Position numbers and translations under genes: made by a program. This document shows, piece after piece, positions 1 through 44,708 of a DNA stretch of 64,000 bases (its first letter is position 1; each line of letters opens with the position of its first letter). The notes under the pieces were generated by a model. It had not been told where the DNA came from. It searched no databases and was given only the letters and a program-made list of their open reading frames with translations. Origin of the DNA: Candidatus Heimdallarchaeum aukensis (GTDB lineage: Archaea > Asgardarchaeota > Heimdallarchaeia > Heimdallarchaeales > Heimdallarchaeaceae); the NCBI GenBank assembly GCA_021513695.1, contig CP084166.1:2016001-2080000 (forward strand), written 5' to 3'.

Positions 1-628
1 ATTTAGTAAAGCTATTGAAGCTGTAAAAGAAAAATCGCCCAAAAGAAAGTTCGTTGAATCGATTGATATGGCTATAAATCTTAAGGATGTAAATCTCAAA
101 GATCCATCTAAGAGGTTTCAGATAGATGTTATTCTTCCCCACGAGATAGAAAAAGAAATAAAAATCTGTCTCTTTGGTGAAGGTTCTCATCTAATTGAAG
201 CACAGCAACTCAAAATATCTAAAGTAATTGATAGAAAAGAGTTGGAAAACATATCTCGTGATCCTAAGTTAGCAAAGAAGATTGCACAGAGTTATGATTT
301 CTTCATTTCCAGCGCACAACTTATGCCTGTTATCGGTAAAACATTAGGGCGATATTTAGGGCCTAGAGGAAAAATGCCTAGACCCGTCCCGCCAACCGAA
401 CAACTAGAACCCCTAGTGAAAAACTATAGTCGAACCGTTAAATTACGTTTAAGGCAAAATCCTGTCGTACATTCACGAATTGGAACAATGAACATGGATA
501 CACAATACTTAGCAGAAAATGCAATGGCTGTACTTCGTGCTGTAGAGGGAAAACTCGAAAGAGGCGCAAGTAACATAAAATCAATTTATCTTAAATCGAC
601 TATGGGTCCTTCAGTAAAAGTAGAATAG
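1..628 (+). CDS. rpl1: 50S ribosomal protein L1 (5' end lies outside the window)
   Basis: The reading frame is open from position 2. The translation (FSKAIEAVKEKSPKRKFVESIDMAINLKDV...GPRGKMP...) matches the L1 family. The gene sits immediately upstream of L10/P0 and L12/P1, as in archaeal L1-L10-L12 operons. Confidence 0.9.
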   Translation, partial: FSKAIEAVKEKSPKRKFVESIDMAINLKDVNLKDPSKRFQIDVILPHEIEKEIKICLFGEGSHLIEAQQLKISKVIDRKELENISRDPKLAKKIAQSYDFFISSAQLMPVIGKTLGRYLGPRGKMPRPVPPTEQLEPLVKNYSRTVKLRLRQNPVVHSRIGTMNMDTQYLAENAMAVLRAVEGKLERGASNIKSIYLKSTMGPSVKVE

Positions 629-637
629 GTGACATAA

Positions 638-1654
638 ATGTCGTCAGTAAGAATTTCAGAAGCAAAAATACAAACAGTAGAGAAACTCAAATCAGAATTG
701 CTTTCCTATCCTATTATCGGTCTCGTAAAAATTGAGAACATTAATGCACGTGTAGTACAGAAGATGAGATCAGAACTTAGAAAAGAAGCTAAAATAGTAA
801 TGGCAAAGAACAATTTAATGAAACTAGCAATAGATCAAGTGAAAGATAAAGTAAAGGGGATAGAACAACTAAAAGAATACATTAAAGGACCTTGTGCATT
901 TTTATTAACAAAAACTAATCCTTTCAAACTAGCAACATACATGAACACAAACAAAGTTCCTGCCCCAGCAAAACCAGGACAAATAGCTTCAAATGATATA
1001 GTTGTTCCTGCAATGAATACAGGTATCCCTCCAGGACCCGTAATATCTGAATTGCAATCACTCGGACTGAAAACTAGAATTGAAGGAGGACAGATAAAAA
1101 TAGCTGAACCCTCCGTCGTTACAAAAGAAGGAGAAAAAGTAACTCGTTCTGTTGCTTTATTACTACGAAGATTGAACATTGAGCCTTTCTTCGTGGGATT
1201 AAGCATGACAGTAGCTCTACAAGATGGAACACTATTACACGGAAAAGATTTGATAGTAGACTATGAACAATATCTCAATAACTTACAATATGCCCATAGC
1301 AGAGCTTTGAACTTAGCAGTTAATGCAGGAATCGTAACAAAAAGAAGCTTACCTATTTTGATACAAAAAGTCTATCAACAAGCAATAAACTTGACTGTTA
1401 ATGCTGGAATAGCAACAACACGCACATTACCTATGTTACTCGCAAAAGTAAGAAGCCAAGCATTAGCGTTGACTAGAATAATAGGTGAAATAGATAGTAA
1501 TGCTGTTTCTGCTAAAGCGCTAGAAGCAGCAAAAACGGCTTCGGTGGCACAAAAAACCACTGTAAGCACGGACAATAAACAAAAACAAGAAGAAAAAGAA
1601 GAAGAGCCAGAAGAAGAGGAAGAAGACCTCGGATTAGGCGCACTATTTGGATAG
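638..1654 (+). CDS. rplP0: 50S ribosomal protein L10 / acidic stalk protein P0
   Basis: 338 aa. The N-terminus is P0-like. The C-terminus has an acidic [18 protein letters not shown] stalk motif identical to that of the downstream P1/L12 gene. Confidence 0.92.
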   Translation: MSSVRISEAKIQTVEKLKSELLSYPIIGLVKIENINARVVQKMRSELRKEAKIVMAKNNLMKLAIDQVKDKVKGIEQLKEYIKGPCAFLLTKTNPFKLATYMNTNKVPAPAKPGQIASNDIVVPAMNTGIPPGPVISELQSLGLKTRIEGGQIKIAEPSVVTKEGEKVTRSVALLLRRLNIEPFFVGLSMTVALQDGTLLHGKDLIVDYEQYLNNLQYAHSRALNLAVNAGIVTKRSLPILIQKVYQQAINLTVNAGIATTRTLPMLLAKVRSQALALTRIIGEIDSNAVSAKALEAAKTASVAQKTTVSTDNKQKQEEKEEEPEEEEEDLGLGALFG

Positions 1655-1664
1655 GTGAAAAAAA

Positions 1665-1967
1665 ATGGAATATGTATATGCAGCAATGATCCTACATGAA
1701 TTAGGAAAAGAAATAAATGAACAAGCAGTAAAAAAGGTTCTTGAAGCAGCAGGAGCTTCAGTAGATGAGTCAAGAGTAAAAGCTCTAGTAGCAGCTCTTG
1801 AAGAAGTAGACATCGAACAAGCTCTAGAAACAGCAGTAATGGCTGCTGCAGCTCCTTCAGCTCCAGCTTCAGCAGGTGGTGCAGAAGAAAAAGCTGAAGA
1901 GAAAAAAGAAGAACCTGAAGAAGAGGAAGAAGAAGAAGATCTAGGTCTTGGAGCTTTATTCGGATAA
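1665..1967 (+). CDS. rpl12: 50S ribosomal protein L12 / P1 stalk protein
   Basis: 100 aa. [30 protein letters not shown] with an Ala-rich hinge and a C-terminal [15 protein letters not shown] motif typical of archaeal P1. Confidence 0.93.
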
Positions 1968-2186
1968 AGCAAAATAAAGACCAAAGTCTTCTGAAGAAAA
2001 TTTTTTCTTTTCTTTATTCTCTTTTTAATTATTTATTTTTTTTAAGAACAATATTTTGAGAAAAAGAGAGTAAACTAAAAAATAAAGTTTGAAGCTTTAA
2101 AAGAAGAAGATAACAATAGAAAAGCTTTTTTAGGTACAAAAAAAAAGAATTATCGTAAATTAAAAACGCTATGGAAAAAGAAGAAA

Positions 2187-2260
2187 GCGGGGTTAGCAGA
2201 GTAGTTATGCGGCGGTCTGCAAAACCGTGGACAGGAGTGCAAATCTCCTACCCCGCTCCA
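2187..2260 (+). tRNA. tRNA-Cys (anticodon GCA)
   Basis: Cloverleaf read by hand. Acceptor stem GCGGGGT/ACCCCGC (7 bp). Anticodon stem GCGGT/ACCGT with loop CTGCAAA. T-arm AGGAG-TGCAAAT-CTCCT. Discriminator T followed by an encoded CCA. The overlapping ORF 2171..2386 is spurious. Confidence 0.75.
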
Positions 2261-2438
2261 ATAAGAGAAGAAAAAAACTTTTTTGAAAAATATTATTGCG
2301 TCAAAAGTTATGCTACTAATAACAGTCTAAACTTAAAAAAAGAATGTTTAGAAAATCAGAAAGTAAGAACATTCAGAGTACAGTAATATCGTAGGAAAAA
2401 CAATACTTAAATTAAGTTAGACGAAAGAGCAAACAATT

Positions 2439-3326
2439 ATGGTTTTTGTAATCTTTGTAGCTGGTTTACTAGAACATGATTCAGGAAAAACTACTCTATC
2501 TAAAGAGATAATCAAACACTTTAAGGACGAAGAAAATATAATAGTACAACCTTTCAAACCTTTAAGTGGGAATAATTTATATTATAACTTCAAAGAAATA
2601 AGAAAAAATTTTGATAAATACAAAGAGATACTATCACTAGATATAATAGAACTAGTAGAACAAGCAGAGACTAAAGTAGAAAATCCAACAATTAATAACC
2701 CAGTTCATAAATTAAATACGCCAGCAATACCTTACGAATTCATAAAGGAAGGAGTGACTCAAACTTATTATAATAGATTTACAGAAAGTGTGGCGTTAAT
2801 ACAAAGATTTACAATTATAGAAGAAGAGAATAAAAGCAAAAATTACTATATAATAAATAATCAAAGCTATAAAAATGCAAAGTTCTTTAATGAAGAAGAG
2901 ATAATAGAAGAATTAAGAAAAAAGGCAGAGAAAATAAACACATACTCAAATGAAGAAGAGTATATAGCTCTAAATATGGATTATTATGCTAAAGCAACAG
3001 AATCAACATTTAATTATTTTGAAAAAAAAGAAAAAATAATACTAATTGAGGGGTTTAACAACTCAGCTCATCCAGCGTGGTGCGTGAGAAAAGCAAATAT
3101 AGTAATATTAGTAGGACCAGGAACAATAATAACATACGAACCAGAAAAATACTTTACAGCAATAGATAATTATAGAATGATAAATAGAGAAAAATTAACA
3201 ATAACAAGTGATATAGTAAAACTACAAAAACCTGATGCAATGTTTAGATTTTCACTAAATAAGGAAGATCTGGATAAAAAAATAAAAAAGTTAATTGAGG
3301 AAATAAACAAAAAAAAGATAAAATAA
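2439..3326 (+). CDS. hypothetical protein with a deviant P-loop-like N-terminus (VAGLLEHDSGKTT)
   Basis: 295-aa ORF, Lys/Glu-rich. The N-terminus resembles dethiobiotin-synthetase or CobQ-type nucleotide-binding loops, but the resemblance is not conclusive. Confidence 0.45.
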   Translation: MVFVIFVAGLLEHDSGKTTLSKEIIKHFKDEENIIVQPFKPLSGNNLYYNFKEIRKNFDKYKEILSLDIIELVEQAETKVENPTINNPVHKLNTPAIPYEFIKEGVTQTYYNRFTESVALIQRFTIIEEENKSKNYYIINNQSYKNAKFFNEEEIIEELRKKAEKINTYSNEEEYIALNMDYYAKATESTFNYFEKKEKIILIEGFNNSAHPAWCVRKANIVILVGPGTIITYEPEKYFTAIDNYRMINREKLTITSDIVKLQKPDAMFRFSLNKEDLDKKIKKLIEEINKKKIK

Positions 3327-3497
3327 ATTGAGAATAAGATAAAATTAATTTAAAACAAAAACAAAGTAAAATTCTAGATATGCTGATTCGTTAATTCTCT
3401 TTTTTAAATTGCTAGAGAAATATATTAGGCAAAAATCCGATCTCATACAGCATTTAAAAGTTGGAAAAGTCTTAATTTGAAATAAGAAAAATGCAAG

Positions 3498-3605
3498 TGG
3501 TGCACGCGCCGGGATTTGAACCCGGGTTCCGTCAGTTCCACAACTACTTTCATACAGAAAGCAGCTTGGCAGTGACGAGTCCTAGCCAAACTAGACTACG
3601 CGAGC
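3498..3605 (-). tRNA. tRNA-Gly (anticodon GCC) with an intron of about 31 nt at or next to the anticodon loop
   Basis: Minus-strand read: GCTCGCG TA GTCT AGTTTGGCTA GGAC T CGTCA CTGCCAA [intron] TGACG GAAC CCGGG TTCAAAT CCCGG CGCGTGC A CCA. There is one T-T mismatch at acceptor pair 3-70. Confidence 0.7.
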
Positions 3606-3763
3606 ATAAATTATTTTTAACTAATTTCTGATTAATGCTTTTTCCTTCTTAATTAAATTTTTCGCTTATTGTTATGCTTTTCTTGATGTTGTAAATTCAA
3701 CGAAAATGGTTTAATAACTTTCCAAAAGATCTATTTTTTTTGAGATAATGAATGTAATTTAAC

Positions 3764-4684
3764 TTACTGTTCTTGTTTAACCCTTATTTTTTTCCAAACA
3801 ATTTCTTCATTTTTGGGCATTGTTTTATTTTGTACAAAGAATTCATCTATATATTCACACATTCTACACGTTTTGTTACAATAGTTCTTGTCTTTAATTC
3901 TAGGTGATAATTGTTCTTCAGATTTTAGTTTCTCAACAAAGGATATAATACTACTAATCCTTTTTAATTCTATATCCTCCTTAGGTATATCTAATATTAT
4001 TCTTTTCTTTTCATCATTGTTATTTAAGTACCACAGTTCAGGAGTAATTTCGATATTAGGTTTCTTTTTTCTAATAATTTCTGAGTAGGTTAACACTTGC
4101 CTTTTATCTCTTGGTGATTTTTTTCCTGTTTTTAGTTCTATCACTCTTATTGCTGTTCGATCTACTGTCCAAGCTAATATGTCTATTCTGCCTGTTAAAA
4201 GAAATTTTTCTGATAATTCATACTCAATTTTGTATTCAGTTCCGATAACAAGAGAAATTAATCTTCCTTTATTATTCTCTTCAACTAAAGTAGAACAAAG
4301 CATAGCCAAAGAGCGTAAATTAAAATAAAGCTCATCGTCAAACTTTACTTCTTTTTCTCTTTCAATTATACAATCAAAGTCCTTTTCTCCATCAGGAAAG
4401 AAAAATCTTTCTGTCAACTCATATAAAGCGGTAAAAAAAGATTCTTTGACGGATAGTTTTTCGTGTATGTAAAAATGTTGTACTAAGTCGAAATTGTTTG
4501 ATAAAACAGATTGTAGAAGTAGATGGTAAAAAGTTCCTAGCTCCATAGATCTTGAAGAAGAAGCATACTCTCTCAATTTATTCATTTTAAGTAGAACTTC
4601 AATATACGGTCTTATTGTACAAAAATCATCTTCAAGAACATCAGTAACGCTAATACTAACATGTTTTTGGAACATGACATTCAC
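3764..4684 (-). CDS. Cas4-like / RecB-family PD-(D/E)xK nuclease with a 4-Cys Fe-S cluster signature (solo, no CRISPR array)
   Basis: 306 aa. Motifs GRIDILAWTVD (D), VIELKTGKK (ExK) and RQVLTYSEI (QxxxY). One N-terminal Cys (DDFCTIRPY) and a C-terminal CNKTCRMCEY (CX3CX2C) cluster, as in Cas4/DUF83 nucleases. Confidence 0.6.
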   Translation of the reverse strand: MNVMFQKHVSISVTDVLEDDFCTIRPYIEVLLKMNKLREYASSSRSMELGTFYHLLLQSVLSNNFDLVQHFYIHEKLSVKESFFTALYELTERFFFPDGEKDFDCIIEREKEVKFDDELYFNLRSLAMLCSTLVEENNKGRLISLVIGTEYKIEYELSEKFLLTGRIDILAWTVDRTAIRVIELKTGKKSPRDKRQVLTYSEIIRKKKPNIEITPELWYLNNNDEKKRIILDIPKEDIELKRISSIISFVEKLKSEEQLSPRIKDKNYCNKTCRMCEYIDEFFVQNKTMPKNEEIVWKKIRVKQEQ

Positions 4685-4764
4685 GCTAATCTTTAATCTT
4701 TTAATAAATTTATAAAAAAGAAAAAAACATAGTCAAAAATAACACATCTTATTTTTTTATTATT

Positions 4765-6219
4765 ATGTTTATATATCGAAAAGTTATTTTTGAATTTGAA
4801 ATGGCTTCAAGAACACATATTCAAGAATATGAATCATGTATTGTTTTCCAGAAATTTATGATCGAAGAAAACATACTTGTTAATTTCTGTAAACATATCG
4901 ATTTTGGCATAGATGGTGAGCTGGATATATTACAAGAAGAGCCAAGGGATGATTTTTACGAAGAACGTAGAGCAATAGATATAGATTTAAGGAAAAAGGC
5001 TTTTGTTCAACTCAAATCTAAAAGAGAAAAAAGTAGGGTAAATGAAGATGGAACTGTTTCATATAGCTTTAAAAAACGACATTTAAAACTATGGCAAAAT
5101 TCGCCCATACCCGTTTTTGTTTTTTTGGTTTACCTTGATGACTCAAAAGAGATCTATTGGACATATGTTGATATTGACTTACAAATAGAAGAAGGGGAAT
5201 CGGAATGCCAAAACCTTACTCTTGAAAAACTAGAGAGGGGATGTAGAAATAAATTCAATAAGATAATTGAGGAGCATTATAAAAAAACAGGATACAAATA
5301 TAATGTCTCAACAAAATTACCAATGTTTAGAGATTTTATTGAAAGGAGAAAGCAAGGTTTAGAACTAAGAAAAAGTTTGATTTTCAAGGAATTAAATCCA
5401 ATAGAAGATAAAAAGGCTAAAATGTTAAGTCCTTTTCCTAAATCAGGATTGAGAAGCAAAACCAGCTACTCAGGATATGCCTTATCTATAGATGATTTCT
5501 ATGAAAAAATAGATGACGATGAATACATTAATGAGCTTTTTAGCCGTAAATCAAGGATAGAAAGCAATATTATTGAGAGTGTATATAAAGCAGAAGTAGC
5601 AAAGATAAAATATGATCTTGTAAATAATCACGAAACATTTTTTGATGATAGTTGGATTGAAATATTTGAAAATATAACAAAAATAACAGAGGAATATACA
5701 AGACCTATTTTGTTTATTAATAGTGAACTAAGAGATATTATTCGAGGGATTCCTGCAGCAGATAGACCTAGTCTAGTAAATCAAGTTCTTCATAATTCAA
5801 AAGAAGATGCAATATCACATTCTCATTATGAAAACATAATAAATGGAAAAAATGTTTATTTCTATTTCTTTTATATTCCTAGACACTTAAGTAAAAAGTT
5901 TCCTGTGTTAAACGATATTAAAATAATTATCTTAGATAGAGAAAAGGTAAAATATATTGTTAAAGAGCCATTAAGATTAGAATGGAGGACGATTACTAGG
6001 CCAGTTCAAGTTGATATTATCGATGGCGCAGCATATAAAGTTACAAAAAAAGAAGAAGAGTGGGATTGGTTTGACTTTACTTGTTATACTATAGGAGAAA
6101 TAAGAAATGAAGGACCAATAAAAATATACAAATTTTCCGAAGATGAGAAAAAGGAATTACAAGACTTTGAAGATAGACTAATAAAACTTACAAAATCAAG
6201 AAAGATTACCAAGGAATAA
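4765..6219 (+). CDS. hypothetical protein with an N-terminal restriction-endonuclease-like signature (HIDFGIDGELDILQE ... QLKSK)
   Basis: 484 aa. Divergently transcribed from the Cas4-like gene with an 80-bp gap. From memory, the N-terminal pattern (D-GIDG-E ... QxK ... PVFVFLVYLD) resembles the DUF4365 family. This could not be verified without a search. Confidence 0.4.
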   Translation: MFIYRKVIFEFEMASRTHIQEYESCIVFQKFMIEENILVNFCKHIDFGIDGELDILQEEPRDDFYEERRAIDIDLRKKAFVQLKSKREKSRVNEDGTVSYSFKKRHLKLWQNSPIPVFVFLVYLDDSKEIYWTYVDIDLQIEEGESECQNLTLEKLERGCRNKFNKIIEEHYKKTGYKYNVSTKLPMFRDFIERRKQGLELRKSLIFKELNPIEDKKAKMLSPFPKSGLRSKTSYSGYALSIDDFYEKIDDDEYINELFSRKSRIESNIIESVYKAEVAKIKYDLVNNHETFFDDSWIEIFENITKITEEYTRPILFINSELRDIIRGIPAADRPSLVNQVLHNSKEDAISHSHYENIINGKNVYFYFFYIPRHLSKKFPVLNDIKIIILDREKVKYIVKEPLRLEWRTITRPVQVDIIDGAAYKVTKKEEEWDWFDFTCYTIGEIRNEGPIKIYKFSEDEKKELQDFEDRLIKLTKSRKITKE

Positions 6220-6240
6220 TCACGTTTATTTTTTATTTAC

Positions 6241-6540
6241 TTATTCGTCTATTATTTTTTGTATTTCTTGTATAAATTCTGCTACTTTAGTTCCTTTTTC
6301 TGTTAGGCTAAAAACACGTTTATTGTAAGGAGGTAGGTATTCCTCTTCTATGAGTTCAAGGACGAGAAGTTTGTTAAGTGAAGTATAAACAGATGTTTGT
6401 GCTATACCAGGTATATTATCTATCAGTTGTGTGATCATTGCTTTTTTTTCAGATAATAGGTATAACAGTATCCTAAGAGCTCCTTTTTGTTCAAGTAAAG
6501 AAAGGGAACCTTCTCGTTCTCTCATTCTTCGGTATCCCAT
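6241..6540 (-). CDS. winged-helix transcriptional regulator (PadR/ArsR-like)
   Basis: 99 aa. ALRILLYLLSEKKAMITQLIDNIPGIAQTSVYTSLNKLLVLELIEEE is a typical HTH plus wing. It lies in the divergent promoter region with the downstream Rep/Par-like pair. Confidence 0.6.
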   Translation of the reverse strand: MGYRRMREREGSLSLLEQKGALRILLYLLSEKKAMITQLIDNIPGIAQTSVYTSLNKLLVLELIEEEYLPPYNKRVFSLTEKGTKVAEFIQEIQKIIDE

Positions 6541-6986
6541 ACCCTTAAACTGTCTAAGAGCTAAAAAATATTCTTATACAATTAATGTATGCATATATAC
6601 GAATGTTTTATATATGAGTAAACCAAATAATACGTAGGGGTTAAGCGACAGAATAAAAATAGAAATGAACCTAAGGAGCGATGAAAAAAGAATGATGGGT
6701 CAAAGATATGAGAAGAAAAGAAGAAAAAAACGTATATACGCCTTCTTCTGTAGTCTGTTCCGTACATAAATATATAGGGGACAAAGAGTTAGGTGTTTTG
6801 TGGATAAGTATTCAACTAGAGGGTGTAAAGCCTGATTTTTATAGTTTTGTTAGTAGAACATTTATAGGAAAAAAGTTTCTTTTATTTTTTTCTGCGTTTA
6901 TAAATTATTTTTATGATAAATATTGTAAACAACAAACCAAGAGGAGGAAAGAGAAGGACTTCTTCACTTCAAAAAAGTGAAACCGT

Positions 6987-8964: not shown

Positions 8965-8995
8965 TATCAAATTTAAAAGAAAAGAAAAATAAAGT

Positions 8996-9047
8996 CTATC
9001 ACTATCCCTATCTCTAAAACTATCACTATCACTATCATTATCACTAT
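8996..9047. repeat. (CTATCA)n hexanucleotide repeat tract
   Basis: ctatcactatccctatctctaaaactatcactatcactatcattatcactatt. Its reverse complement shares 19-20 identical bases (gatagtgatagtgatagtt) with the tract at 54963..55011. Confidence 0.75.
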
Positions 9048-9131
9048 TATTTTCATTTGAACTAGCAAAAAATAAACAAAACAAAACGAAAAGGGAAAAA
9101 AACACAAAAGAATGGAGATAAGAGAAAGAGA

Positions 9132-10514: not shown

Positions 10515-10652
10515 GAATAAATAGACCTTTTTTTATTAATAAATTTTTGTAAATTATTGCTTTACCAGTCATTTAATGTTATAAAACAGTAAATTAAAGT
10601 CACATTATAAAAGAAATAAATGAATTAAGAATAGTAAATTGGTACCTATAAA

Positions 10653-10710
10653 AAACGTCTATAAAAACTATCGACACTTTTGAGAAACGTCTATAAAAAC
10701 TATCGACACT
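10653..10710. repeat. tandem direct repeat, 2 x 26 bp (aaacgtctataaaaactatcgacact) with 32-bp period, containing a TATA-box-like core
   Basis: Copies at 10653..10678 and 10685..10710 are identical. They lie in the 780-bp intergenic region between the beta-helix gene and the giant operon. Confidence 0.8.
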
Positions 10711-23965: not shown

Positions 23966-23967
23966 AA

Positions 23968-35900: not shown

Positions 35901-38900
35901 GCTCATGCAAATACCAATGGATATACTAGATTTGTTCACTCCAGGACCTTTTTCTCTCGTAGGAAATACAATGAATAAAATTTTCAAATCTATAGTCGGA
36001 GACGTTACCTTAGAAGTAAATAGGATAACAAAAACATTTAATTTACTAGATATTGTACAAAATTTCCCAAAAGGAGAGTGGAAAAGCATTGCTCGAGCAG
36101 CAGGAAAATCAGAACTAATGATCTGGATAGTTGGAGCAGCACAAGTGACTTACCGTTTCTCTAAACTAGCCAATCAATTCTATCAATGGTTCTTCTTCCT
36201 CCCGCAAAAGATTTTCATGAGTAGTTTACAAATAACTTTAGGGTCATTCATGATATTTGCCTCTAAAATGATTTATGCCATCAGAAGAATGGATATCGAA
36301 GAAGCAATGTTGTTAAACATTAAAGCGCAAAAATACTTCAACCAAGGACTAGATGATACCGCTAAAATGACAAGAGCTATATTAAGCCATCCAAAAATGC
36401 TAGCAAGATTTGGAACTGAAGAACTTATAGAACGAGCAAATATAGTAGCAAAATATTACATGAACATTATTATAAAGAAAGTAATGGAATTGGAAGCAAC
36501 ATCAAAAGCAATACTAGAATCGGTTGAAAAGTCACGCTTCTATGTTATGATGGCCTTAAGATATGCTACACATATGTACATGAACACCCCAGGAGGAGTA
36601 GGTATACACTTCTCTCCCAATTTAATTGATAATGAGAAAGAAACTGAAGGAATAAGACATTTCAACACCGTGGATAATATTTTGCCAAAATTAGAATATG
36701 AAATAGCAATGTATTACTGGAAGCATGAATATCTAGCGGATGATGAAAAAATAAAAGAGTATAATAGTGAAAAATTCAATTTCAGAGATGTAGAAAGCGC
36801 AAAAATACATATAACTATAGCTTTTTCATCTATTGCTGCAATACATTCGACACCAGAATCATTCCAAAGATATAAAGAACTACTAGAATACACAGATAAG
36901 AGGTTAATAGAAATAAAAAATGAAAAGGGTGAAAATCTAGAGTATACACCTATATGGTGGATTTTACATTTGCCTGTTGATCCCTCGCTACAAAAACTAG
37001 CCCTTAGCCACATATTTGATGAATCACCTGCAGTTTCACTGCTTCTAAAAGTTCTAATGGTAGAGAAAGGTCTTAACGAAGACTTATTAGAAAATAATAT
37101 CGACGATATAGATGAATACAATAAAGAAGTTCATTCCATTTTAGATCAAATTTTATCTTCTTCCCCCCTAAATATAAGTCATAAAGTCTTTATCCTTGAA
37201 AAAGATGAAAAAGGGAATCATATCTGGAAAGCAAGAATTTTAGATTTGTTAGGGCAATCTGAAGGATCATTAACTAAGTTAAGGACACGAGATGAATATA
37301 TTAAGTGGTCTGTAATCGGTAGAACAGGAATAGACTTGTTAGGCCTTTTCGGAAGTGAAGAATTAAAAAACTATTTTCCCAAAGGAGTAAGAAATGCTTT
37401 AACTGCTAGAAATGATCAAACTTCAATAATCTATGAGCTTATATGTATGGGATTATTAGATTTTAGATTTTATACAGATGATAAAAATGTAAAGGATCAA
37501 TTAAAAATTGATTTTCCAGAGCATGACTTTGAAAAAGAACCCAGTATTAGCATTGCTGAATTAGCTAAAAAATATAGTAAATATGATATTCTAGAATTAT
37601 TTGAAAAAAGTAATTTTATTAGACAGACTCTTATAAGTAATGGAGTAGACGGATTAATACACAGTACAAAAATAGGAAAGTCTCTTTATTCTGTTAAAGA
37701 TTCAACGGGAATATTCAATAAAGCTAATTCAAAAAATATTTTATACTCTGTAGCAGCTGAAAATGCATATATAGGTCATGGAAGTGTTATTTATTATTAT
37801 GATAAGCTACAAGGTGATATTATCACGGATATAGATAATAAATTGATATACAATGCTAGATATTATGATCCTACAGCTTCAAAATCACCTAAACCTTTTG
37901 TTCCAGGCGATGCAATATTACTCTATGATTCCAATGTAAATCGTTATCTGTTTTTAAGAACTAATTTTCCTGAGGACACTATGCTAAATCAAAATCAGAA
38001 ACTAGATGAATATAGTGGTTTTAAAAGAGAAATTAACGTGTTTTGGTTTCAAATAAACAAAGATACAAATGAGGGAGAGATAGTTTATGATACATTAGAA
38101 CACTATTGTTATGAAAATGAAAAACTGAAGGAAGGAATAAAAGTTGTTGGAACGGAGGATATTTTGCAAGAGGTAGATAAGTTTCATCCAAAGAGAAATA
38201 AAATAAGAAGTAGTCAACCTATAATATCAATAGAAGCAAAGCAAAATGGAGGGAACATAGATTACGTTGTCTCAATGGATGAACAACTTCCTTTATTTAG
38301 GTTTATAGGTGGAGATTATTCAACTGCAACAGAAAAAGACATCAATTTTGCTAGTTTTCTTTACCCAAGAAAACATTCCAACGATATTGTTTTCGGATTG
38401 CAAGATGATAACTTAGATTTTATCGATGAAAAGGGTTTATGGCCTATCCATATGGGTTTAAGCCCAGGAAGGTTTACATACAACGTGCAAAACATATATT
38501 TAGATGAGATTAATTCAGCAAAAGCGTTATTGGATAAATTAGATGAATTAGATAACTTGCCTGTAGTAGAAGTTAAAACAAAGGATAATGAATATATAAC
38601 TCGACCAGCAACAGTTCAGGAAGTAAATCAACAGAGAGTATATGAGTTAATTAGATGGTACTCTACAAGTCAAGTGTATACTTATTATGTGTCTAGTTTA
38701 AATAAAGAAAATAAAGCATTTTTGTGCAGAGCATATCTAGATGATTGGAATGCAGCTAAATCGTTAGGTGAAATCATAGAAATAGCAGAAGATACTAATG
38801 GAAATCTATACCAGAAATATGGTTATGAGAATAAACAAGAATATCTAACCTTTAGAATGAATGTTATTCAAACAATAATAAACGAACAAGAACAGTTCTA

Positions 38901-40641
38901 TAAATACAAGTTTAAAGATGAAAGTGATTTAACAAAAGAAGAAAAGTTGGTAATATTTCTAAAAGAACAAAAAGAATTTTTTGAAAGATTACATAATGAC
39001 GCTGCTAAAATAGAGGCATTTCAAGAACCATTTTTTTCAAACTTGAGACTAGACATTAAAGAAGTCGATACATATAATGTACTTAATTATCGCAGTTTAG
39101 AATCGTCAATTGAATTACTTTTATTAAATAGATTTGACTCGTATAATAAGATACACTTATTCGAAGGAGATGTACCTTTTTCAAGAAACCCGATGAAATT
39201 CGGTTTCGATAATGTAATTGTCCAAATAGGTACGAGAGCATTCATAAACAAGGTCAAAGAAGAGGGAATATTAGATTTTGATGAAGATAAAAATTCAGTA
39301 TTAGAACTAGCTAATAAAGTATTTAAAAGAAAAACAGTTATAAAACCATTAATCCGCGGACCAATAAAAGCAAAATCAATTGCTTTTCTCCAACATGAAG
39401 AAACAATGGCTAAACTGAACAATTATAAAACATTGCAAAAAATATCCAAAGAAGAAATAAGGCTCTGGAAACTTTACAACAAAAAATTAGATAATGAAAA
39501 AGGCCATTTGACTGTAGAGCAACTATACGAAATAGAAGAAGAGTTCAACAATATAAATGGAAAAAATATAGTAGGAAAACAAGGAGCAGGGATGACAGTA
39601 ATAGAAGATGGAAACACATATGTTGTAAAAATATACAGTCTCATCAGTGATTTAAGATATAATAACAAAATTCATGCAGGTAGTGAGGCAAATAAGTATG
39701 ATATTGCAGAAAGAGTGTTGGGACTAGCACAACACATAAAGTACGTAGCAAAGGAAGGAAGAATATACATTAATTATGCAATGGCAAACATTCTTTATCT
39801 GATAAAAACACTAACAAACGGTAAAATGGAAATAGATGACGTCCAGAATCTAAGGGACCTGGGAAATCCAAAGGAATTAGAAGCTATACTAGTAAATAAT
39901 TTAGGGGAAGAAAGAACAAAAGAAATACTAAATATTTTAGAAGAAGTAACCATAAGAACGAAAAGAAAAATAAAACAAGGAAAAGATTATTCCATAGAAA
40001 ATATAGAAAAAGGACAATCGTTGGCTTTTCAAATTGGATATGTGGATCTGAAAAATATAACCCCTGAGGTAAGAGGAAAATTAAGGCTACAAGGGATGTT
40101 ATTGAGAGAAATCTTGATGTTACTGGATATAATATATGGACTATATTATACAGGAAGAAATTATATGAAACGCCTAGATATTAATTTAGCGCAAACAACA
40201 GTAATTTTCGAAAAAACAACGGAAGAAGGCAAAACAATACTAAAATTAAAAGACGTAAAAACAAGCACAGAACAAGAAATGAATGGAGAGTTCATATCAT
40301 CACTGAACGATTTCGACCAAAAAACAGCATCAATAATAGAAAAACTGGCTGAAACTAAATATTCATCAGTATTTGGACCAGAATTTATGACTAGAGAACA
40401 ATTAAGAAAATTGGTAGATGAAATAATAGAAGAATATGAGAGTATACTAAAATTGAAAATAAGAAAATTCAATGAAATATTAACTCAAGACGATATGGAA
40501 GTAGAACTAGTAGCAAAGAAATTCAAAATAGAAGAATTGCTAAAAATGCTAACACCTAAAGGATTATGGTCAATGTACGAGCAAAAGAAAAGAAATAATG
40601 AAAAAAGAGGACAAACAAAAATAACAGACTTCCTAATTTAA
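23968..40641 (+). CDS. giant membrane protein (5557 aa): N-terminal signal-anchor, about 3600-aa ectodomain, cluster of hydrophobic helices, and an about 1400-aa Lys/Glu-rich cytoplasmic tail
   Basis: The start codon is 3 nt after the stop of the preceding giant gene, with GGAGG 8 nt upstream. N-terminal TM segment (LVITGVALFISVIVILQSF). Hydrophobic segments near aa 3660-4100 (KYSLVMFWGLILGNSAG, LMIWIVGAAQV, QITLGSFMIFASKMIYAI). The C-terminal third has a charged, helical-looking composition. Confidence 0.85.
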   Translation: MQKIKSKMNTFLGKLNKRSLVITGVALFISVIVILQSFSIALYPQSSDDDSYTFFYSDFSDKEEWKGVYRLSWGSIIVDSNFNAMSKKIDLYWYGMQQLFLEVKGIDSLKLDSSSAIQVIDADTSRILYELRGSQLSSFNVSVDLSAYVYEDTSALYINIIGSIKIIDYIRIFTPKLYYHNFLNDGKTFPNAYHEFNQLYIDYLAYTEEVTYETPVIKVPEGNNVNLTFAFNLVPSLTSNYSMFAHIYADIYGLGGFGEVEQRIELGYSYTNMSFGADYVSLIDKEITLLGNYYVRFYLNFDCFETNEEDIQIKLIAFFIQPHNNVEEQSEYVDPALYIRKSPNAYISEQVVEGRVFNALTVDRQGYIATYKISHMDTIFYDKLDPSTIEENYTIGNPDTLVYDFDSSKNLRLNSSGYLYSSESIGSDFSVSTSFNLNSLASNRIFAGIGIYGTHSYEFAVGNMTLYEETYVDEETTTVKVKEVYQAYLHVYKDNLLIRSYALNQTFGEGQVISLSLSSKFGYKAYSVQINYEEIVISLSEIIAIGGKPGIFAKIPQPSPDNFVSFYYLSASGITEYSPRRLLIYSKTQQYVTVVLKATRINPLSFSSEKVVIDEKKLSQNKEGILYFSYIPKPFEYIHLEVYCTNPDEELTSSFSILAMKFSGIHEYNTIIPSYDYYDISDSVYFEKRNLISEDLSDNFIASYDAIVEERYSLLEIGAEAQDSLPDTQIDIYTRKLNSGLPFTFQGTVYWTEHESGSFFSHVLYLDLSPGNYEIRLERPLIFTSKLNISYLLLRPLTSYANAVTDSVGFTNPLSWEKDFTTDKIDAFNGIDQFIEESYYSLVHPSCYMKDDGNGNYEQYTDWTPSTDDTQIWSVEDNLASFVGGVKLDIPDVSTGPEGYPYLRFVARTYSNCTIDLKLTLTYSDGSTNEYYYSVSQEPKVYFFNFDYTDSLKILSGIEFFTNYILYNDKDESVIVSDIHLYRFTNIEVKLEDQSYLDDSGFDTSDYSGDNFSVAPFLSDYYGLLDIDLNYIPSNERVKVWTDNDAEGLKQYYYNYNNHYLLPSTVTVPINDWRVNKGASVGIYSTPLTSLNLNFMISMDIENRKTFNEDMTIELFEYKFKPNTDAYATSLPYSYYKLKFYLYGSIEMQNEEGEMEGGYLYYRLFAYDGVEETELTPTYDMLSDNTDFLQAISTNTLDFPNMLRITENYEKGITHLIYNTNEESELRAVFPVNFEEAYTISIHFGQDQEIKREYADADSKDEVFDTPFFVGVSSFDTFLDLYGGSGEKATLLFADVTIPSSMFPSLFIQTSEAINSTTELTWGTDYSINWSPEPTFYVNSYEPSRNEETGYKPLAHHINLFENRYLLLEDLKTIFEEIDVTPYLVNENYGDFIYLPKYYSATLSTLQDVYVTTYDLSFEGTGNFQLIGNTILKSYIFDYNDEKNKNWKNEFIDKTVSSLKFISTYEKDTLPKTYLSCLDYLSYEYYAKNKKREYSFTDGFTNYEDWTTVDFSLFERVKEPSLRSSPLGLVIDENSIDFTSENMDSIYDYFDPTDELEDLFSFSGKTIYYLPSYYMKGGNDQPGHSLWDRVIAGEAFQGFNPSSSPYYQNQLYLYNNWMYDLQSQIIQKEGYNIYDQNELQIYNIYDEIPGDHRDFSCMLPDYLRFKPVYYSTSLPKNFIWSFDINVDSWSLGNLAENYVKFFDKEEGRYSFYISIPIILPSHGNKPYYQDLAQAPNVLRLFIYYDSGTEYHDSDTETGFFKLDPHYSIYLGRSIIGIWKASESVSLHFEIAVEEKEIDESYAIYQEGVNGGPQITAYYDYNLQMWINNDNMYWDLLKLPMWMLTIAYPYKDKDDNKAIPNNYQYDLMYNQLFNTQNSENGYINPQYSEAFNTYYKGLYGDKEPNGFQPDARLFFDTGSLTEHTYHWLQYQRSLVSDKYYSLSLSEYGIDPSNPSLYDWDYHYYSRDNYAGMVRSDLADVRFENPRYVSGEYNWANIANEIYEYDTALYNIDYALDNSLYKIPQRTIGFGVNYPFVGISDVSITPLNSIQTTDLDEDGEEDFSIINGDVATDGENVIVKPGSAITSLDLTNDLDIAIKYKDIISSCRGYYDNTFLDYSFEVGLQDLHNPNLKYYFYMKNSYPYNQYFEYVNSGQIDNIVPFTEDDSLPSLDSEITQPLMGTYVGIKGYAQSSSDYSLITDTLSSTFKRIFQPKNSILYDYLNIKYDVTTKILTFILWSEKYGNKQSYEISYNLSETGELGTNDLTNYTLYFKTENAYLFIDKIYTRTFMPVEDTNSERYYRGAGKLGDYYLYSPVNHGLELQNQVKLNYEDYNLNSFPSTEFYFIPTSESSFSLDLFGIKSDDTLENFLKLEINGKECKLSLDSGDSWNSLNNTEIENMFDVVNSYTWNSLSIHRGSEEDQLIITLNNQDYPFVFHIDTEEYYKYKFTLTHKRSRTIIDNLSFLSLYEEFENERKLLDDEWEKDISRGFYRQIQVTKAQSQLIIYGASIIEGETEVTVTFNDDPTTTVSQIWKQSSIGLKMDYYSYLIPSSVDMSLPVKVSLSVSNMAIINWLSIEPMKDIESILYLSNNNKYIDQVYSPMEYLSGSELVYSSTYEQPHALEVGGTTQVKFKYNYSPEDLDVAPNVVFEGFIKGQGKISFSFQVKLPDKFTSLNVNFIGLVGVGESTEQYIATISREEKTITYSAILSSAEEQEQWKYFYISLYQLARHIPKELLVDNYSNGNKEVDLLDENYPVSGIISDAKMVVNYEGSYVEKIIQLEKGANQNLYISDLKSTITNIHSAYPYENALSSLPEEIKWKKYDVPFDGYIPLDNVYLDDFDGSSYYIYDVVVYVDASTYSKVHLTVETEGSFVLSNRYSIILQKMGFSNEVVSTVFSAQQGYTPLYLHVVFPKTAFNQNIRIQYISNGGVAISAENNREGDAISEWLISTPFYSEKNEDTVDYLNFISQVTPMEGERFEKRVVDSEGFTHTETIEFSEFTFPGFCPILDFVPHAVPSGYSVILTTTLDFAKSLNTSLVLLLNKESGITIQSLLWDETPLLYINEGVFNEIDSDLENGMITIPLNSEGLTVNSLFSPKENNPNEYGFIENDPDYNFHFSSSDPYSIKTSSVNPDSVILNNKGIHRIVIQLTFPSPYNTDFGIYLENVDDSVRTVLSPSDKAIDFHAIAQKNFIQFENDLHQPQTLAQLEKNENTLFKSRYFKDDYGQYHSYRIYSLGFSDEYTLDKGKKWKIYDGDTDDSNDVIYESTAHYNWKHVIGKMNFAIVIDEGTPQVLQLPFNFLVGYMVFCDWLDTNGDGLEDTCAPYIGLADPLDASSTYDDVKKGVVYNTEEEKKISYDVTDEQQAELKNLTVRQSLISSLSTTVITKTEETIPLSYTSDEIAAIQNNGLTLDRYLHSLIENDYLTYSEDIARVEITISSSNNKEIDLAYDYDKEILFTHSVDNATGEEEKIVYDFRYDCFSVLTPDALANDNYRVDFYTFNNKLSLYDTDLYKLKETPNSYGLLDDPQTLSPMVVLENYNYEIKETVNSLDSKDEEILNNSPTTIVDAFVQGLSLSQLSVEMYDAEIEMDYYSLDLFYSVFFNEYLTLQQFFYSQETLNNNQNYQYYPTGTIQFAKWISSILNSYIIQQSDKLFDEYQNRTSRYDSEKKAIAAMSFLLDLIIPYRGFKTYGSEPKPEETHHPRFSSYVDFKYSLVMFWGLILGNSAGCGIPKNSVSLFSESERTGKLLMIDELWDKAIKHWNLADKSRIDDPSEYLPYTDRAVVDKILFDARVRGDEAMIDWITNEDYSAEAYYMQPYGVDYSIYYWLKAFTIQQGYDPYAIKVYTIEEMNSQEREDFDENYFVIGVPVSTIEDQYLEYNWFVSLDKETRVPTSATSQLIDFIPLVFGQSSNPHIRTMMKIIKRLGNAAKGENFGYNTFSMSEFSLIVTLEFLVNLVDIGALLIDIRDAYIGATPFIRKMSLMQIPMDILDLFTPGPFSLVGNTMNKIFKSIVGDVTLEVNRITKTFNLLDIVQNFPKGEWKSIARAAGKSELMIWIVGAAQVTYRFSKLANQFYQWFFFLPQKIFMSSLQITLGSFMIFASKMIYAIRRMDIEEAMLLNIKAQKYFNQGLDDTAKMTRAILSHPKMLARFGTEELIERANIVAKYYMNIIIKKVMELEATSKAILESVEKSRFYVMMALRYATHMYMNTPGGVGIHFSPNLIDNEKETEGIRHFNTVDNILPKLEYEIAMYYWKHEYLADDEKIKEYNSEKFNFRDVESAKIHITIAFSSIAAIHSTPESFQRYKELLEYTDKRLIEIKNEKGENLEYTPIWWILHLPVDPSLQKLALSHIFDESPAVSLLLKVLMVEKGLNEDLLENNIDDIDEYNKEVHSILDQILSSSPLNISHKVFILEKDEKGNHIWKARILDLLGQSEGSLTKLRTRDEYIKWSVIGRTGIDLLGLFGSEELKNYFPKGVRNALTARNDQTSIIYELICMGLLDFRFYTDDKNVKDQLKIDFPEHDFEKEPSISIAELAKKYSKYDILELFEKSNFIRQTLISNGVDGLIHSTKIGKSLYSVKDSTGIFNKANSKNILYSVAAENAYIGHGSVIYYYDKLQGDIITDIDNKLIYNARYYDPTASKSPKPFVPGDAILLYDSNVNRYLFLRTNFPEDTMLNQNQKLDEYSGFKREINVFWFQINKDTNEGEIVYDTLEHYCYENEKLKEGIKVVGTEDILQEVDKFHPKRNKIRSSQPIISIEAKQNGGNIDYVVSMDEQLPLFRFIGGDYSTATEKDINFASFLYPRKHSNDIVFGLQDDNLDFIDEKGLWPIHMGLSPGRFTYNVQNIYLDEINSAKALLDKLDELDNLPVVEVKTKDNEYITRPATVQEVNQQRVYELIRWYSTSQVYTYYVSSLNKENKAFLCRAYLDDWNAAKSLGEIIEIAEDTNGNLYQKYGYENKQEYLTFRMNVIQTIINEQEQFYKYKFKDESDLTKEEKLVIFLKEQKEFFERLHNDAAKIEAFQEPFFSNLRLDIKEVDTYNVLNYRSLESSIELLLLNRFDSYNKIHLFEGDVPFSRNPMKFGFDNVIVQIGTRAFINKVKEEGILDFDEDKNSVLELANKVFKRKTVIKPLIRGPIKAKSIAFLQHEETMAKLNNYKTLQKISKEEIRLWKLYNKKLDNEKGHLTVEQLYEIEEEFNNINGKNIVGKQGAGMTVIEDGNTYVVKIYSLISDLRYNNKIHAGSEANKYDIAERVLGLAQHIKYVAKEGRIYINYAMANILYLIKTLTNGKMEIDDVQNLRDLGNPKELEAILVNNLGEERTKEILNILEEVTIRTKRKIKQGKDYSIENIEKGQSLAFQIGYVDLKNITPEVRGKLRLQGMLLREILMLLDIIYGLYYTGRNYMKRLDINLAQTTVIFEKTTEEGKTILKLKDVKTSTEQEMNGEFISSLNDFDQKTASIIEKLAETKYSSVFGPEFMTREQLRKLVDEIIEEYESILKLKIRKFNEILTQDDMEVELVAKKFKIEELLKMLTPKGLWSMYEQKKRNNEKRGQTKITDFLI

Positions 40642-40664
40642 AAATAGTAAATAAAGAAAAAAAC

Positions 40665-40768
40665 TGGTGCGTCAACCGGGAATTGAACCCGGGCCGTCGA
40701 ATCTCTTCTTGAGGCTTCTAGACGCCATATAATGGAAGTCCGACGTACTACCACTATACTATTGACGC
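40665..40768 (-). tRNA. tRNA-Gly (anticodon TCC) with an intron of about 30 nt
   Basis: Minus-strand read: GCGTCAA TA GTAT AGTGGTA GTAC G TCGGA CTTCCAT [intron] TTCGA CGGC CCGGG TTCAATT CCCGG TTGACGC A CCA. Confidence 0.7.
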
Positions 40769-40984
40769 TTTCTTTGTTTTTTTCTTTCTATTCTTTTGAT
40801 TACCGATTTCTTTTTAACTTTTATGGATTTTGTCTTTTTCTTTTTTTTCTTCTTTCTCTTCTTTTTTTTATTTTTAATTTATGTTTCTCTTCTTTTTTTT
40901 ATTTGTTTAAAATCAATATATTTAAGTAACGTTGTTTTGTTTCTGACTTAAGATATACTAACATTATTTAGAGGAGAATATATT

Positions 40985-41482
40985 ATGAGTTCAGATACAG
41001 TTACTGTTGATCTTTTAGTAGATGGTGGTAAAGCTACCCCTGGTGGTGCTATGGGCCCTGCTCTTGGTCCTACTGGTGTTAATATCAAGCAAGTTGTCGA
41101 TGAAATTAACAAGCAAACTCAAGCTTATAAAGGTATGAAGGTTCCTGTTACTGTTACCGTTTTCAAGAAAACACGTGAGTTTACCCTTTCCGTTGGTATT
41201 CCTCCTGCTTCTGCTCTTATTTTAAAAGAAGCTGGTATTTCCAAGGGTTCTGGTACTCCTAATACTGAGGTTGTTGGTAATATTACTTTTCAACAGTTGA
41301 TCAATGCTGCTAAAGCTAAATGGCCTGATCTTACTGCTGCTACCCTTGCTGCTGCTTGTAAAGAGTTGCTTGGGACCATGGTTTGTATGGGTATTACTTG
41401 TGATGGTAAAGCTCCTCGTGTAGTTCAGAAGGAGATAGATGAAGGAGTATATGATGATATTCTCTCTGAGAATGAGGATTAA
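40985..41482 (+). CDS. rpl11: 50S ribosomal protein L11
   Basis: 165 aa. VDGGKATPGGAMGPALGPTGVNIKQVVDEIN and PPASALILKEAGI are hallmark L11 motifs. Strongly biased (T/C-ending) codon usage, typical of highly expressed genes. Confidence 0.93.
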   Translation: MSSDTVTVDLLVDGGKATPGGAMGPALGPTGVNIKQVVDEINKQTQAYKGMKVPVTVTVFKKTREFTLSVGIPPASALILKEAGISKGSGTPNTEVVGNITFQQLINAAKAKWPDLTAATLAAACKELLGTMVCMGITCDGKAPRVVQKEIDEGVYDDILSENED

Positions 41483-41558
41483 ATTTCGTTATAAACAAAG
41501 TTTATGAATGCTAGTAAAAAATTAAACATGAAGTATATTTAAAATAGAGGTATAGATA

Positions 41559-41753
41559 ATGAGCAAATTTATTAACAATACTCGTTCTTTCGTTATTCGT
41601 AGTAGACGTTTACTTCGTCATGCTAAAAAGCCTAGTCGTCGAGAGCTTTCCATGACTGCTAAAATTACTGCTTTAGGTATTATAGTCATTGGATTAATCG
41701 GTTGGGTTCTTCATCTTATGTTCAACGTTATACTTGACGCTATTAACAAATGA
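41559..41753 (+). CDS. secE: protein translocase subunit SecE / Sec61-gamma
   Basis: 64 aa. A basic N-terminus followed by a single TM helix (ITALGIIVIGLIGWVLHLMFNVIL). Located directly upstream of spt5, as in archaea. Confidence 0.75.
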   Translation: MSKFINNTRSFVIRSRRLLRHAKKPSRRELSMTAKITALGIIVIGLIGWVLHLMFNVILDAINK

Positions 41754-41799
41754 TATTATTCTTTCTTACGTTTTACTTAAACCTCGTGGAGATGAAATT

Positions 41800-42294
41800 A
41801 TGCCAATATATGCATTGAGAACAGCAATAGGGCAGGAACAATCTGTTTCTGAGTATTTAGCTCGTCGAGCAGATAAACGACCAGAGCTTGATATTAAAGC
41901 TATTTTGGTTACTGGTTCTCTTAAAGGTTATATCTTTATAGAATCAAGTTCAATTGATCACATAGAGTTACTAGTTGAAGGAGTCAGACACGTAAGGAAA
42001 CGTCCTCGTTCTTCTAGAGCTGAAGAGATACCTATTAATGAGCTAGAACATTTTCTTATGCCTCGTCCTGTTATTGAAGGGGTAAACCCTGGTGATATAG
42101 TAGAAATCGTCTCTGGTCCCTTTAAGGGTTCTCGAGCACGTGTCACAGATATTCATTCTGCAAAAGAAGAAGTTACCTTGGAGCTTTTAAGTGTTGATCT
42201 TCAAATACCCGTTACTATTTCTGGAGAATCAATACGCGTTATCGAAAAGGCCGCAACTGAAAAGGAAGAGGAAGAAGGAGAGTATCTTTTATAG
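41800..42294 (+). CDS. spt5: transcription elongation factor Spt5 (NusG homolog)
   Basis: NGN domain (MPIYALRTAIGQEQSVSEYLARR) plus a KOW motif (GDIVEIVSGPFKGSRARV). The in-frame ATG at 41800 was chosen over the upstream ORF-track start at 41734. Confidence 0.85.
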   Translation: MPIYALRTAIGQEQSVSEYLARRADKRPELDIKAILVTGSLKGYIFIESSSIDHIELLVEGVRHVRKRPRSSRAEEIPINELEHFLMPRPVIEGVNPGDIVEIVSGPFKGSRARVTDIHSAKEEVTLELLSVDLQIPVTISGESIRVIEKAATEKEEEEGEYLL

Positions 42295-42326
42295 ATAACT
42301 AATTATTTTTTGCCTATTTTTCTTTC

Positions 42327-44684: not shown

Positions 44685-44708
44685 TTTTACCGATACAATT
44701 TTCTATTT

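Follow-up and report, generated by a model that had tools for sequence, protein, structure and literature searches.

Gene order, a tRNA-flanked aloposon and a candidate L1 leader at the split ribosomal protein locus of 'Candidatus Heimdallarchaeum aukensis'

The archaeal gene cluster SecE-Spt5-L11-L1-L10-L12 is split in 'Candidatus Heimdallarchaeum aukensis' PM71, where its two halves stand on either side of a 39-kb interval. We analyzed a stretch of 64,000 nt from the closed genome of this archaeon (CP084166.1, positions 2,016,001 to 2,080,000; hereafter the window), and the layout found there is very probably the product of two unrelated events superimposed on one another: an old reshuffle of gene order and the much later arrival of accessory DNA at tRNA genes. 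The reshuffle would have broken the ancestral SecE-Spt5-L11-L1-L10-L12 order into an L1-L10-L12 unit and an L11-SecE-Spt5 unit which, in the three lineages that have both on one contig, lie on the same strand, 5–39 kb apart, each with its own conserved upstream sequence. The interval would later have turned into a place where accessory DNA settles at tRNA genes, namely tRNA-Cys and a tRNA-Gly pair. Both the split and the mobile element now residing in the interval, an aloposon, are already known and have been published for PM71 itself, and the significance of the locus beyond the literature is small; the gain is one of clarity, in that an old, family-wide reshuffle is told apart from a later, strain-variable occupant of tRNA sites. 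It would be wrong to cite the locus as a case of a mobile element breaking an operon. What is new comes down to a conserved leader before L1, the tandem tRNA-Gly target, deletion scars of the element and a polymorphism of tRNA introns.

Gene order and the age of the split

Pfam matches and the open reading frame (ORF) listing agree in placing all six genes on the forward strand of the window, each single-copy in the region, and they bear out the original prediction as far as the positions of the genes, the distance between the two halves and the precedence of L11 over SecE-Spt5 are concerned. The left unit is compact, its genes separated by 9 and 10 nt, and consists of L1 (uL1; 2–628; Ribosomal_L1, E = 1.1e-53), L10/P0 (638–1654; Ribosomal_L10, 1.1e-20; RL10P_insert, 9.7e-20; also Ribosomal_60s) and, as its last gene, L12/P1 (1665–1967; Ribosomal_60s, 2.8e-18). 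The right unit is more loosely spaced (gaps of 76 and 46 nt) and consists of L11 (uL11; 40985–41482; N-terminal domain, 8.8e-24; C-terminal domain, 1.5e-22; identical to UJG40000.1), SecE/Sec61-gamma (41559–41753; SecE, E = 2.8e-09) and Spt5/NusG (41800–42294; Spt5-NGN, 1.3e-17; KOW, 2.7e-07). The Spt5 ORF extends back to a TTG at 41734, and the 164-aa product called in other same-species assemblies is that of the ATG at 41800. Rather than standing immediately before L1, L11 starts 39,017 bp downstream of the L12 stop, and it precedes SecE and Spt5 instead of following them. The window start cuts the 5' end of L1, whose ATG lies 13 nt upstream of base 1 and whose first four codons fall outside. 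A locus that prolongs the window leftward by 9.4 kb (L001, in which position 9364 is window position 1) holds the complete gene, of 213 aa, at 9350–9991. Directly upstream of L1 in this locus are a divergent 67-aa ORF, a DUF87 ATPase gene and an Arf-like GTPase gene, with no L11; further upstream, on the other strand, lie S19e, a dsDNA-binding protein, L39e, L31e and eIF6, and beyond them YhbY, Rpr2 and FtsZ.

The same arrangement recurs among relatives. A strain with 97–98% DNA identity (L002) carries L1-L10-L12, tRNA-Cys, a 295-aa gene, tRNA-Gly, 2.9 kb of other DNA, a second tRNA-Gly and L11-SecE-Spt5, so ordered, with only 4,788 bp between L12 and L11. L11 is followed by SecE and Spt5 at seven loci of the family, with L11 identities of 97, 85, 76, 76, 72, 70 and 66%; these are H. 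endolithica PR6, a sister species with a complete genome (L010), two GTDB species representatives (L011 and L012, both at 76%) and four further contigs (L041–L044, at 85, 72, 70 and 66%). PR6 has no L1, L10 or L12 within 10 kb upstream of its L11. That this complete relative shares the split speaks for a lineage-ancestral arrangement and not a recent insertion, and the original prediction had itself named such a relative as the mark of an ancestral state. Compact L1-L10-L12 units without L11 were found in six further lineages (L092–L097), with L1 identity ranging from 76% down to 52%. Two pairs of units sit on single contigs, where L1-L10-L12 and L11 share a strand and the former is 17,931 and 15,683 bp upstream, and the gaps between them hold core genes (FtsY, prefoldin, LX, eIF6, L31e, L39e, S19e, Arf and Roadblock). 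Adjacency of L11 and L1 was seen at none of nine decidable Heimdallarchaeaceae loci as against 39 of 42 decidable loci of other archaea, in a sample that is not phylogenetically independent. L11-SecE-Spt5 is a conserved, family-wide unit, present in all Heimdallarchaeaceae lineages where it can be judged, and gene order indicates that the split predates the sampled lineages of the family and is not recent. The intermediate relatives were obtained by exact-protein look-ups; a metagenome scan with L1 returned same-species loci and distant archaea, and no intermediate relatives.

The canonical SecE-Spt5-L11-L1-L10-L12 order was recovered in Baldrarchaeum, Thermococcus, Desulfurococcales and many metagenomic archaea. 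It had been claimed that the six genes are contiguous in nearly all archaea, and the 39 loci with L11 next to L1 go some way with this; the claim is nevertheless overstated, as no SecE or Spt5 match lies upstream of L11 in three Promethearchaeota (Loki-group) loci and one Alkanophaga locus, and Methanococcus vannielii also departs from the pattern (PMC3616713). Two Hodarchaeota loci (L015, 4276–10459; L016, 151–6272) have another break, in which SecE-Spt5 is followed directly by L10, and L1 stands on the opposite strand just upstream of L11.

Could a contiguous operon have been broken recently by a 39-kb insertion at the L11/L1 junction? The block is largely strain-specific, being absent from PR6 and L002, and it carries a mobile element, both of which would suit such an event. 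Its removal, however, gives L1-L10-L12-L11-SecE-Spt5 and not the canonical order; L002 keeps the same order without the block, across its 4.8-kb gap; all nine decidable loci of the family lack the L11-L1 junction; and the inserted DNA lies between two tRNA-Gly genes instead of at an operon junction. We give this explanation almost no weight. Since the canonical order cannot be converted into L1-L10-L12...L11-SecE-Spt5 by one insertion, the accessory block is not the cause of the split, and at least two rearrangement steps would be needed to reach the present order. The original prediction of an insertion or rearrangement at an ancient operon junction is therefore right about the rearrangement and about foreign DNA between the halves, but the foreign DNA did not separate them. 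Least probable of all is an assembly or binning artefact joining unrelated contigs across repeats: the two giant genes of the interval are long and repetitive-looking internally and the Logan assembly breaks inside the second, but the layout is not such an artefact because independent Logan assemblies (run SRR15988954) are 100% identical to window positions 1–11654 (11.6 kb, from L12 through tRNA-Cys and the left arm of the element into the first giant gene) and 33284–45345 (12 kb, from the second giant gene through tRNA-Gly to L11), the L1-L10-L12 context is reproduced in five other samples and the source genome is closed (PMC8813620).

Upstream of L11, a block at 40901–40952 on the forward strand is conserved in an alignment of seven lineages. 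It has no significant RNA fold (z = 0.0), and its conservation suggests the promoter region of an independent L11-SecE-Spt5 unit. Two ORFs of 65 and 51 aa at 40732–40951 overlap tRNA-Gly(UCC) and a T-rich tract and are almost certainly not genes. In one relative (L043) a 528-aa gene with a Cas12f1-like TNB domain (TnpB-like; 6443–8029) stands between LSM and L11, a position from which it is absent in L042 and L044; this is another mobile gene that has landed just upstream of L11. On the far side of the unit, Spt5 is followed by a gene for an Eco57I/MmeI-type N6 DNA methyltransferase (42327–44684, 785 aa). Homologues of it recur near the L1 or L11 units in L041, L092, L093 and L097, which points to a long-standing neighbour rather than strain-specific cargo.

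Accessory DNA at the tRNA genes

The interval holds three tRNA genes: tRNA-Cys(GCA) at 2187–2260 on the forward strand, tRNA-Gly(GCC) at 3498–3605 on the reverse strand, with a 31-nt intron, and tRNA-Gly(UCC) at 40665–40768, also reverse, with a 30-nt intron. Only tRNA-Cys is found there by ARAGORN at default settings; both tRNA-Gly genes are missed and emerge in the intron-aware mode. The Rfam tRNA model matches 40668–40768 on the reverse strand (59.3 bits, E = 6e-12) with a 32-nt insert in the anticodon loop. Outside the interval, a tRNA-Met(CAU) gene with a 47-nt intron (63608–63733) was likewise missed by the default scan and seen in the intron-aware scan only. In L041 the tRNA-Gly(GCC) and tRNA-Gly(UCC) genes are in tandem, 9 nt apart, just upstream of L11, from which it follows that window positions 3606–40664, about 37 kb, are inserted DNA, with tRNA-Gly(GCC) as its left and tRNA-Gly(UCC) as its right flank.

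This inserted DNA consists of a gene for a PD-(D/E)XK nuclease and a published aloposon with its Otus/Ephialtes pair of giant genes. By the definition of Wu et al. (2022, Nat Microbiol, PMC8813620), aloposons carry tandem genes for proteins of 3,000–6,000 aa, named Otus and Ephialtes, with a tRNA site downstream and four genes upstream that include a MinD/ParA-like ATPase, and Aloposon3 of H. aukensis is given as the counterpart of Aloposon2 of H. endolithica. The window has two giant genes in tandem, 2 nt apart on the forward strand, encoding 4223 aa (11294–23965; identical to UJG39998.1) and 5557 aa (23968–40641; identical to UJG39999.1), and the 3' end of tRNA-Gly(UCC) lies 24 nt from the stop of the second. 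The 4223-aa protein shares a 90% cluster with a 4225-aa protein of H. endolithica; the accession of this giant protein of PR6, at least 90% identical, is about 200 away from that of L11. Taken together, the giant pair, a ParA-like gene, the tRNA and the counterpart in H. endolithica at 90% identity or more identify the block as the published element, and by elimination it is Aloposon3.

The left arm of the aloposon (4765–10514) encodes a DUF4365 protein (4765–6219, forward), an HxlR-like regulator (6241–6540, reverse), two forward ORFs of 90 aa (6708–6980) and 397 aa (6987–8180) to which Pfam assigns no function, a ParA/MinD-like ATPase (8164–8964, forward; AAA_31, 1.6e-14; CbiA, 3.3e-12) and a NosD/beta-helix secreted protein (9132–10514, reverse), the named families being Pfam assignments. 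The two consecutive forward ORFs precede the ParA-like gene. The nuclease gene (3764–4684, reverse; PDDEXK_1, E = 2.2e-11) is present in PR6, which matches window positions 3457–4919, and absent from L002, which diverges at 3754, and is thus part of the variable DNA between the tRNA-Gly genes. By contrast, the 295-aa gene to the left of tRNA-Gly(GCC) (2439–3326, forward), a weak P-loop protein with only weak Pfam matches, is not variable DNA: it is common to all Heimdallarchaeum strains seen, with 89–98% DNA identity in L002, L006 and PR6. Its equation with similar-sized neighbours of L1-L10-L12 in L096 and L097 was rejected on comparison. The island that had been placed at 2.4–10.5 kb is accordingly mixed, since 2397–4919 is shared with PR6 and only from about 4.9 kb onwards does it form the left part of the aloposon.

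The same site has a different content in the closest relatives. PR6 lacks window positions 4920–40532 and has in their place a scar (L010, 9150–9530), in which some 260 nt matching 4658–4919 run straight into sequence matching 40533 onward. At the scar, the opening 155 nt of the DUF4365 ORF and its upstream region are fused to the final 108 nt of the second giant gene, with the frame broken and both sides 87% identical to the window. In L002, positions 3754–40449 are replaced by about 2.5 kb, and a 214-aa ORF of this strain matches residues 5129–5258 (61%) and 5494–5557 (83%) of the second giant protein. A 631-aa ORF of L002 was also considered as a remnant of a giant gene and rejected, having no Pfam match and no similarity to the second giant protein, the only one compared. 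The pieces in PR6 and L002 look like deletion remnants of resident copies, and such decayed pieces at this very site suggest that the element is probably ancestral there, that is, already present in the common ancestor of PM71, PR6 and L002 and later lost by internal deletion. The scars would then inform how aloposons are lost, in a setting where neither recombinase nor attachment (att) sites were found.

An alternative is that PM71 acquired the aloposon recently, at a tRNA-Gly site that was empty, that the element was not in the common ancestor and that the pieces in PR6 and L002 derive from separate, older insertions. The L002 remnant is only 61–83% identical to the PM71 giant protein in a setting of 97–98% identical flanking DNA, and PM71 and PR6 share only 87% identity over the tRNA-Gly(UCC) region, as this alternative would lead one to expect. 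On the other hand, the PR6 scar matches the ends of the PM71 element at 87% on both sides, and it joins internal points of the first left-arm gene and the last gene, as a deletion inside a resident copy leaves. We regard a recent arrival as unlikely, though clearly worth keeping in mind, and ancestral residence followed by internal deletion as the better reading of the site. Elsewhere in PR6, a stretch about 30 nt after tRNA-Pro(UGG) (L010, 19474–20471) is 93% identical to window 8366–9368, which covers the ParA gene's 3' part together with the DNA that follows. Judging from this similarity, a further aloposon, complete or fragmentary, probably sits at this other tRNA; the tRNA-Pro of PM71 (50201–50277) has no such ParA-region neighbour.

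Some points weigh against the account given so far. Around most relatives only ±10 kb was seen, and the statement that the two units lie nearby on the same strand rests on three lineages and does not extend to L042–L044. The transcription units are deduced from spacing and upstream conservation. By Pfam, no integrase, transposase or recombinase family appears among the ORFs of 2.4–11.4 kb, and comparison of the tRNA-Gly(UCC) 3' region with the left junction gave no tRNA-derived flanking repeat. The flanks share as their sole repeat a 12-nt A-rich word (4717 and 40653), which is at chance level in AT-rich sequence, and an att site or target-site duplication around the inserted DNA was rejected for this reason. 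Aloposons have moreover been described by Wu et al. (PMC8813620) as having moved between tRNA sites, and it is from remnants that the direction of the history is deduced; a favoured site with recurrent insertions that then decayed would give a similar picture.

The tRNA-Gly genes themselves vary. Clean introns of 30–32 nt are present in both genes of PM71 and PR6 and in neither gene of L002, despite its 97–98% identical flanks, or of L041; the intron-less alleles are at 12861–12936 and 15849–15923 in L002 and at 9173–9331 in L041. Alignments show that the anticodon stems differ between intron-containing and intron-less alleles. There is, then, a presence/absence polymorphism of tRNA introns between very close strains, at both genes that flank the variable DNA.

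The tRNA-Cys gene is likewise a site of accessory DNA. Three assemblies (L003, L004 and L006) match the window only to position 2264, with divergence starting 4 nt after the tRNA-Cys 3' end, and in L003 and L004 a Cas6 gene follows the tRNA (11963–12700). PR6 has Cas3-Cas4-Cas1 and 47 repeats of GTTAAAATTGGACTAATATAGGATTGAAAT (L010, 15–6724) upstream of the 295-aa P-loop gene. A type I system of clustered regularly interspaced short palindromic repeats (CRISPR-Cas) thus occupies the tRNA-Cys site in PR6 and two other assemblies, which fits the placement of CRISPR-Cas systems C3 and C4 next to tRNA genes by Wu et al. (PMC8813620). The repeat is absent from the window, and the PR6 spacers gave only short chance matches to the window, the PM71 aloposon included.

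A conserved leader before L1

Directly before L1, just outside the window, lies a nearly invariant structured leader of about 65 nt (L001, 9284–9352, corresponding to window −79 to −12), which is present in all seven Heimdallarchaeaceae lineages examined; its other copies are at L092 3438–3512, L093 9930–10006, L094 9936–10006, L095 9935–10006, L096 6680–6749 and L097 9925–10006. In the five aligned lineages the region before L1 (L001, 9255–9352) has an invariant TTTAAAA box, some 90 nt ahead of the ATG, and a leader of the pattern GUUCU-nn-CCGC-(5-6 nt)-CCGUU-loop-AACGG-RA-GCGG-UAGAGGU-UGAUA-(2-3 nt)-AUG. The fold of the leader (z = −3.63) is predicted to comprise three main stems, an asymmetric internal loop of 6 nt and 2 nt and a weaker outer stem, with RNAalifold in agreement. 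The last predicted stem includes GAGG and ends 5 nt before the AUG; this GAGG, sequestered in the modelled fold, could possibly serve for ribosome binding. When trained on the five sequences, a covariance model finds the two further lineages outside its training set, with 63 and 61 bits and matches running 3 nt past the L1 ATG, and it finds nothing elsewhere in 717 kb, the window included, and matches none of the non-Heimdall loci compared.

The original prediction held that the split would uncouple the autoregulation of the L11-L1 mRNA by L1 and pointed to an L1-binding mRNA structure upstream of L1 and of L11 as the thing to look for. A candidate is found at L1, in the seven lineages, and no copy of it at L11, where an L1-type site was rejected after an Rfam scan, the leader covariance model (window and 45 loci) and folding all proved negative. 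The idea of uncoupling borrows the arrangement of E. coli and does not carry over. In M. vannielii, rplK does not lie together with rplA, rplA-rplJ-rplL are co-transcribed, and an L1-binding structure directly precedes rplA, so that L1 regulates an operon without L11 (Fu et al., 2013, PMC3616713); the minimal archaeal L1 target on mRNA comprises 38 nt and forms a stem-loop whose loop is asymmetric (PMC1920258). By analogy with that system, the leader is the prime candidate for a site of L1 feedback, its predicted fold placing a stem-loop with an asymmetric internal loop directly before the gene start, and L1-L10-L12 would probably be controlled as in Methanococcus, with L11 outside the circuit. 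We go one step further with some diffidence, and with rather less than an even chance of being right: the leader may be a translational operator that responds to L1, is peculiar to this lineage and has no entry in Rfam, and, as a minor second point, the tRNA-Gly site may have been held ancestrally by the aloposon and have lost it in PR6 and L002 by internal deletion rather than by clean excision.

The most serious rival, to which we assign only slightly less than an even chance, is that the leader is not an L1 feedback site at all and serves instead as the site of another protein (for example, P0/L10), as an element of processing or stability, or as a promoter-proximal DNA element. Bacterial L10(L12)n controls its own operon, which counts in favour of this rival. 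So do several features of the leader that tell against L1 feedback. Across the seven lineages 97.6% of cells are paired, but covariation is weak, since the arms show little variation: there are two compensatory pairs, and 77 of 500 shuffles score as well. The Rfam scan of the leader gave neither a family match nor an LSU match. The leader resembles the GG-GA-GC / GC-G...A-CC motif of L1 sites, and this likeness is only a lead. A Methanococcus-type L1 site pattern had no match in the comparison loci, among which there are probably no Methanococcales. Against the rival stand the position of the leader right before rplA and its asymmetric-loop stem-loop, both of which match the described archaeal L1 target (PMC3616713, PMC1920258). 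The stem arms are moreover invariant around a terminal loop that varies from 9 to 33 nt, which argues for constraint at the level of RNA. If the reading as an L1 feedback site is true, ribosomal protein feedback was kept on L1-L10-L12 after L11 had left, in the family of archaea that is placed nearest to eukaryotes. As a by-product, the analysis yields a candidate regulatory RNA for L1-L10-L12 of Heimdallarchaeaceae.

Comparison with known systems

Among known systems, integrase-mediated, tRNA-targeted islands resemble the interval in that tRNA-Cys and tRNA-Gly(UCC) each have accessory DNA directly at their 3' end and that the cargo differs by strain; they differ from it in that no recognisable integrase or other recombinase and no duplicated tRNA 3' segment was found here. 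With the aloposons, as described by Wu et al. (2022), the likeness extends to the tandem giant genes, the upstream ParA/MinD-like gene and the downstream tRNA, with no difference in kind. To that description we add the location of the element between a formerly tandem tRNA-Gly pair, its putative deletion remnants in PR6 and L002, and the finding of no integrase, transposase or flanking repeat.

The MvaL1 operon of M. vannielii, which L1 autoregulates, has the same L1-L10-L12 composition and order, L11 elsewhere and a structured RNA right before L1 (PMC3616713, PMC1920258). Regulation is only predicted in Heimdallarchaeaceae, whose leader sequence is specific to the family among the archaeal loci compared.

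A further close precedent is the study of the super-cluster of L31e and L11-L1-L10-L12 by Tirumalai et al. (2023, Archaea 2023:5512414, PMC10833476), which includes the same genome (CP084166.1). In its account of this region, L11 is separated from L1-L10-L12 in every Heimdallarchaeote examined, PM71 among them, and the rearrangement is termed identical in PR6 and PM71, the same conclusion on the detachment of L11 as that reached here. That account also has L12-L10-L1 abutting the block from S19e to eIF6 on the opposite strand, with which L001 agrees, and an L10-spt5-secE arrangement in the Hodarchaeales-like bins bin6, bin76, bin272 and bin2.246, which agrees with our two Hodarchaeota loci. 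Beyond what it gives for this region, the present analysis adds the family-wide L11-SecE-Spt5 unit, the strain-variable distance between L12 and L11, the tRNA genes and the conserved sequences upstream of the two units.

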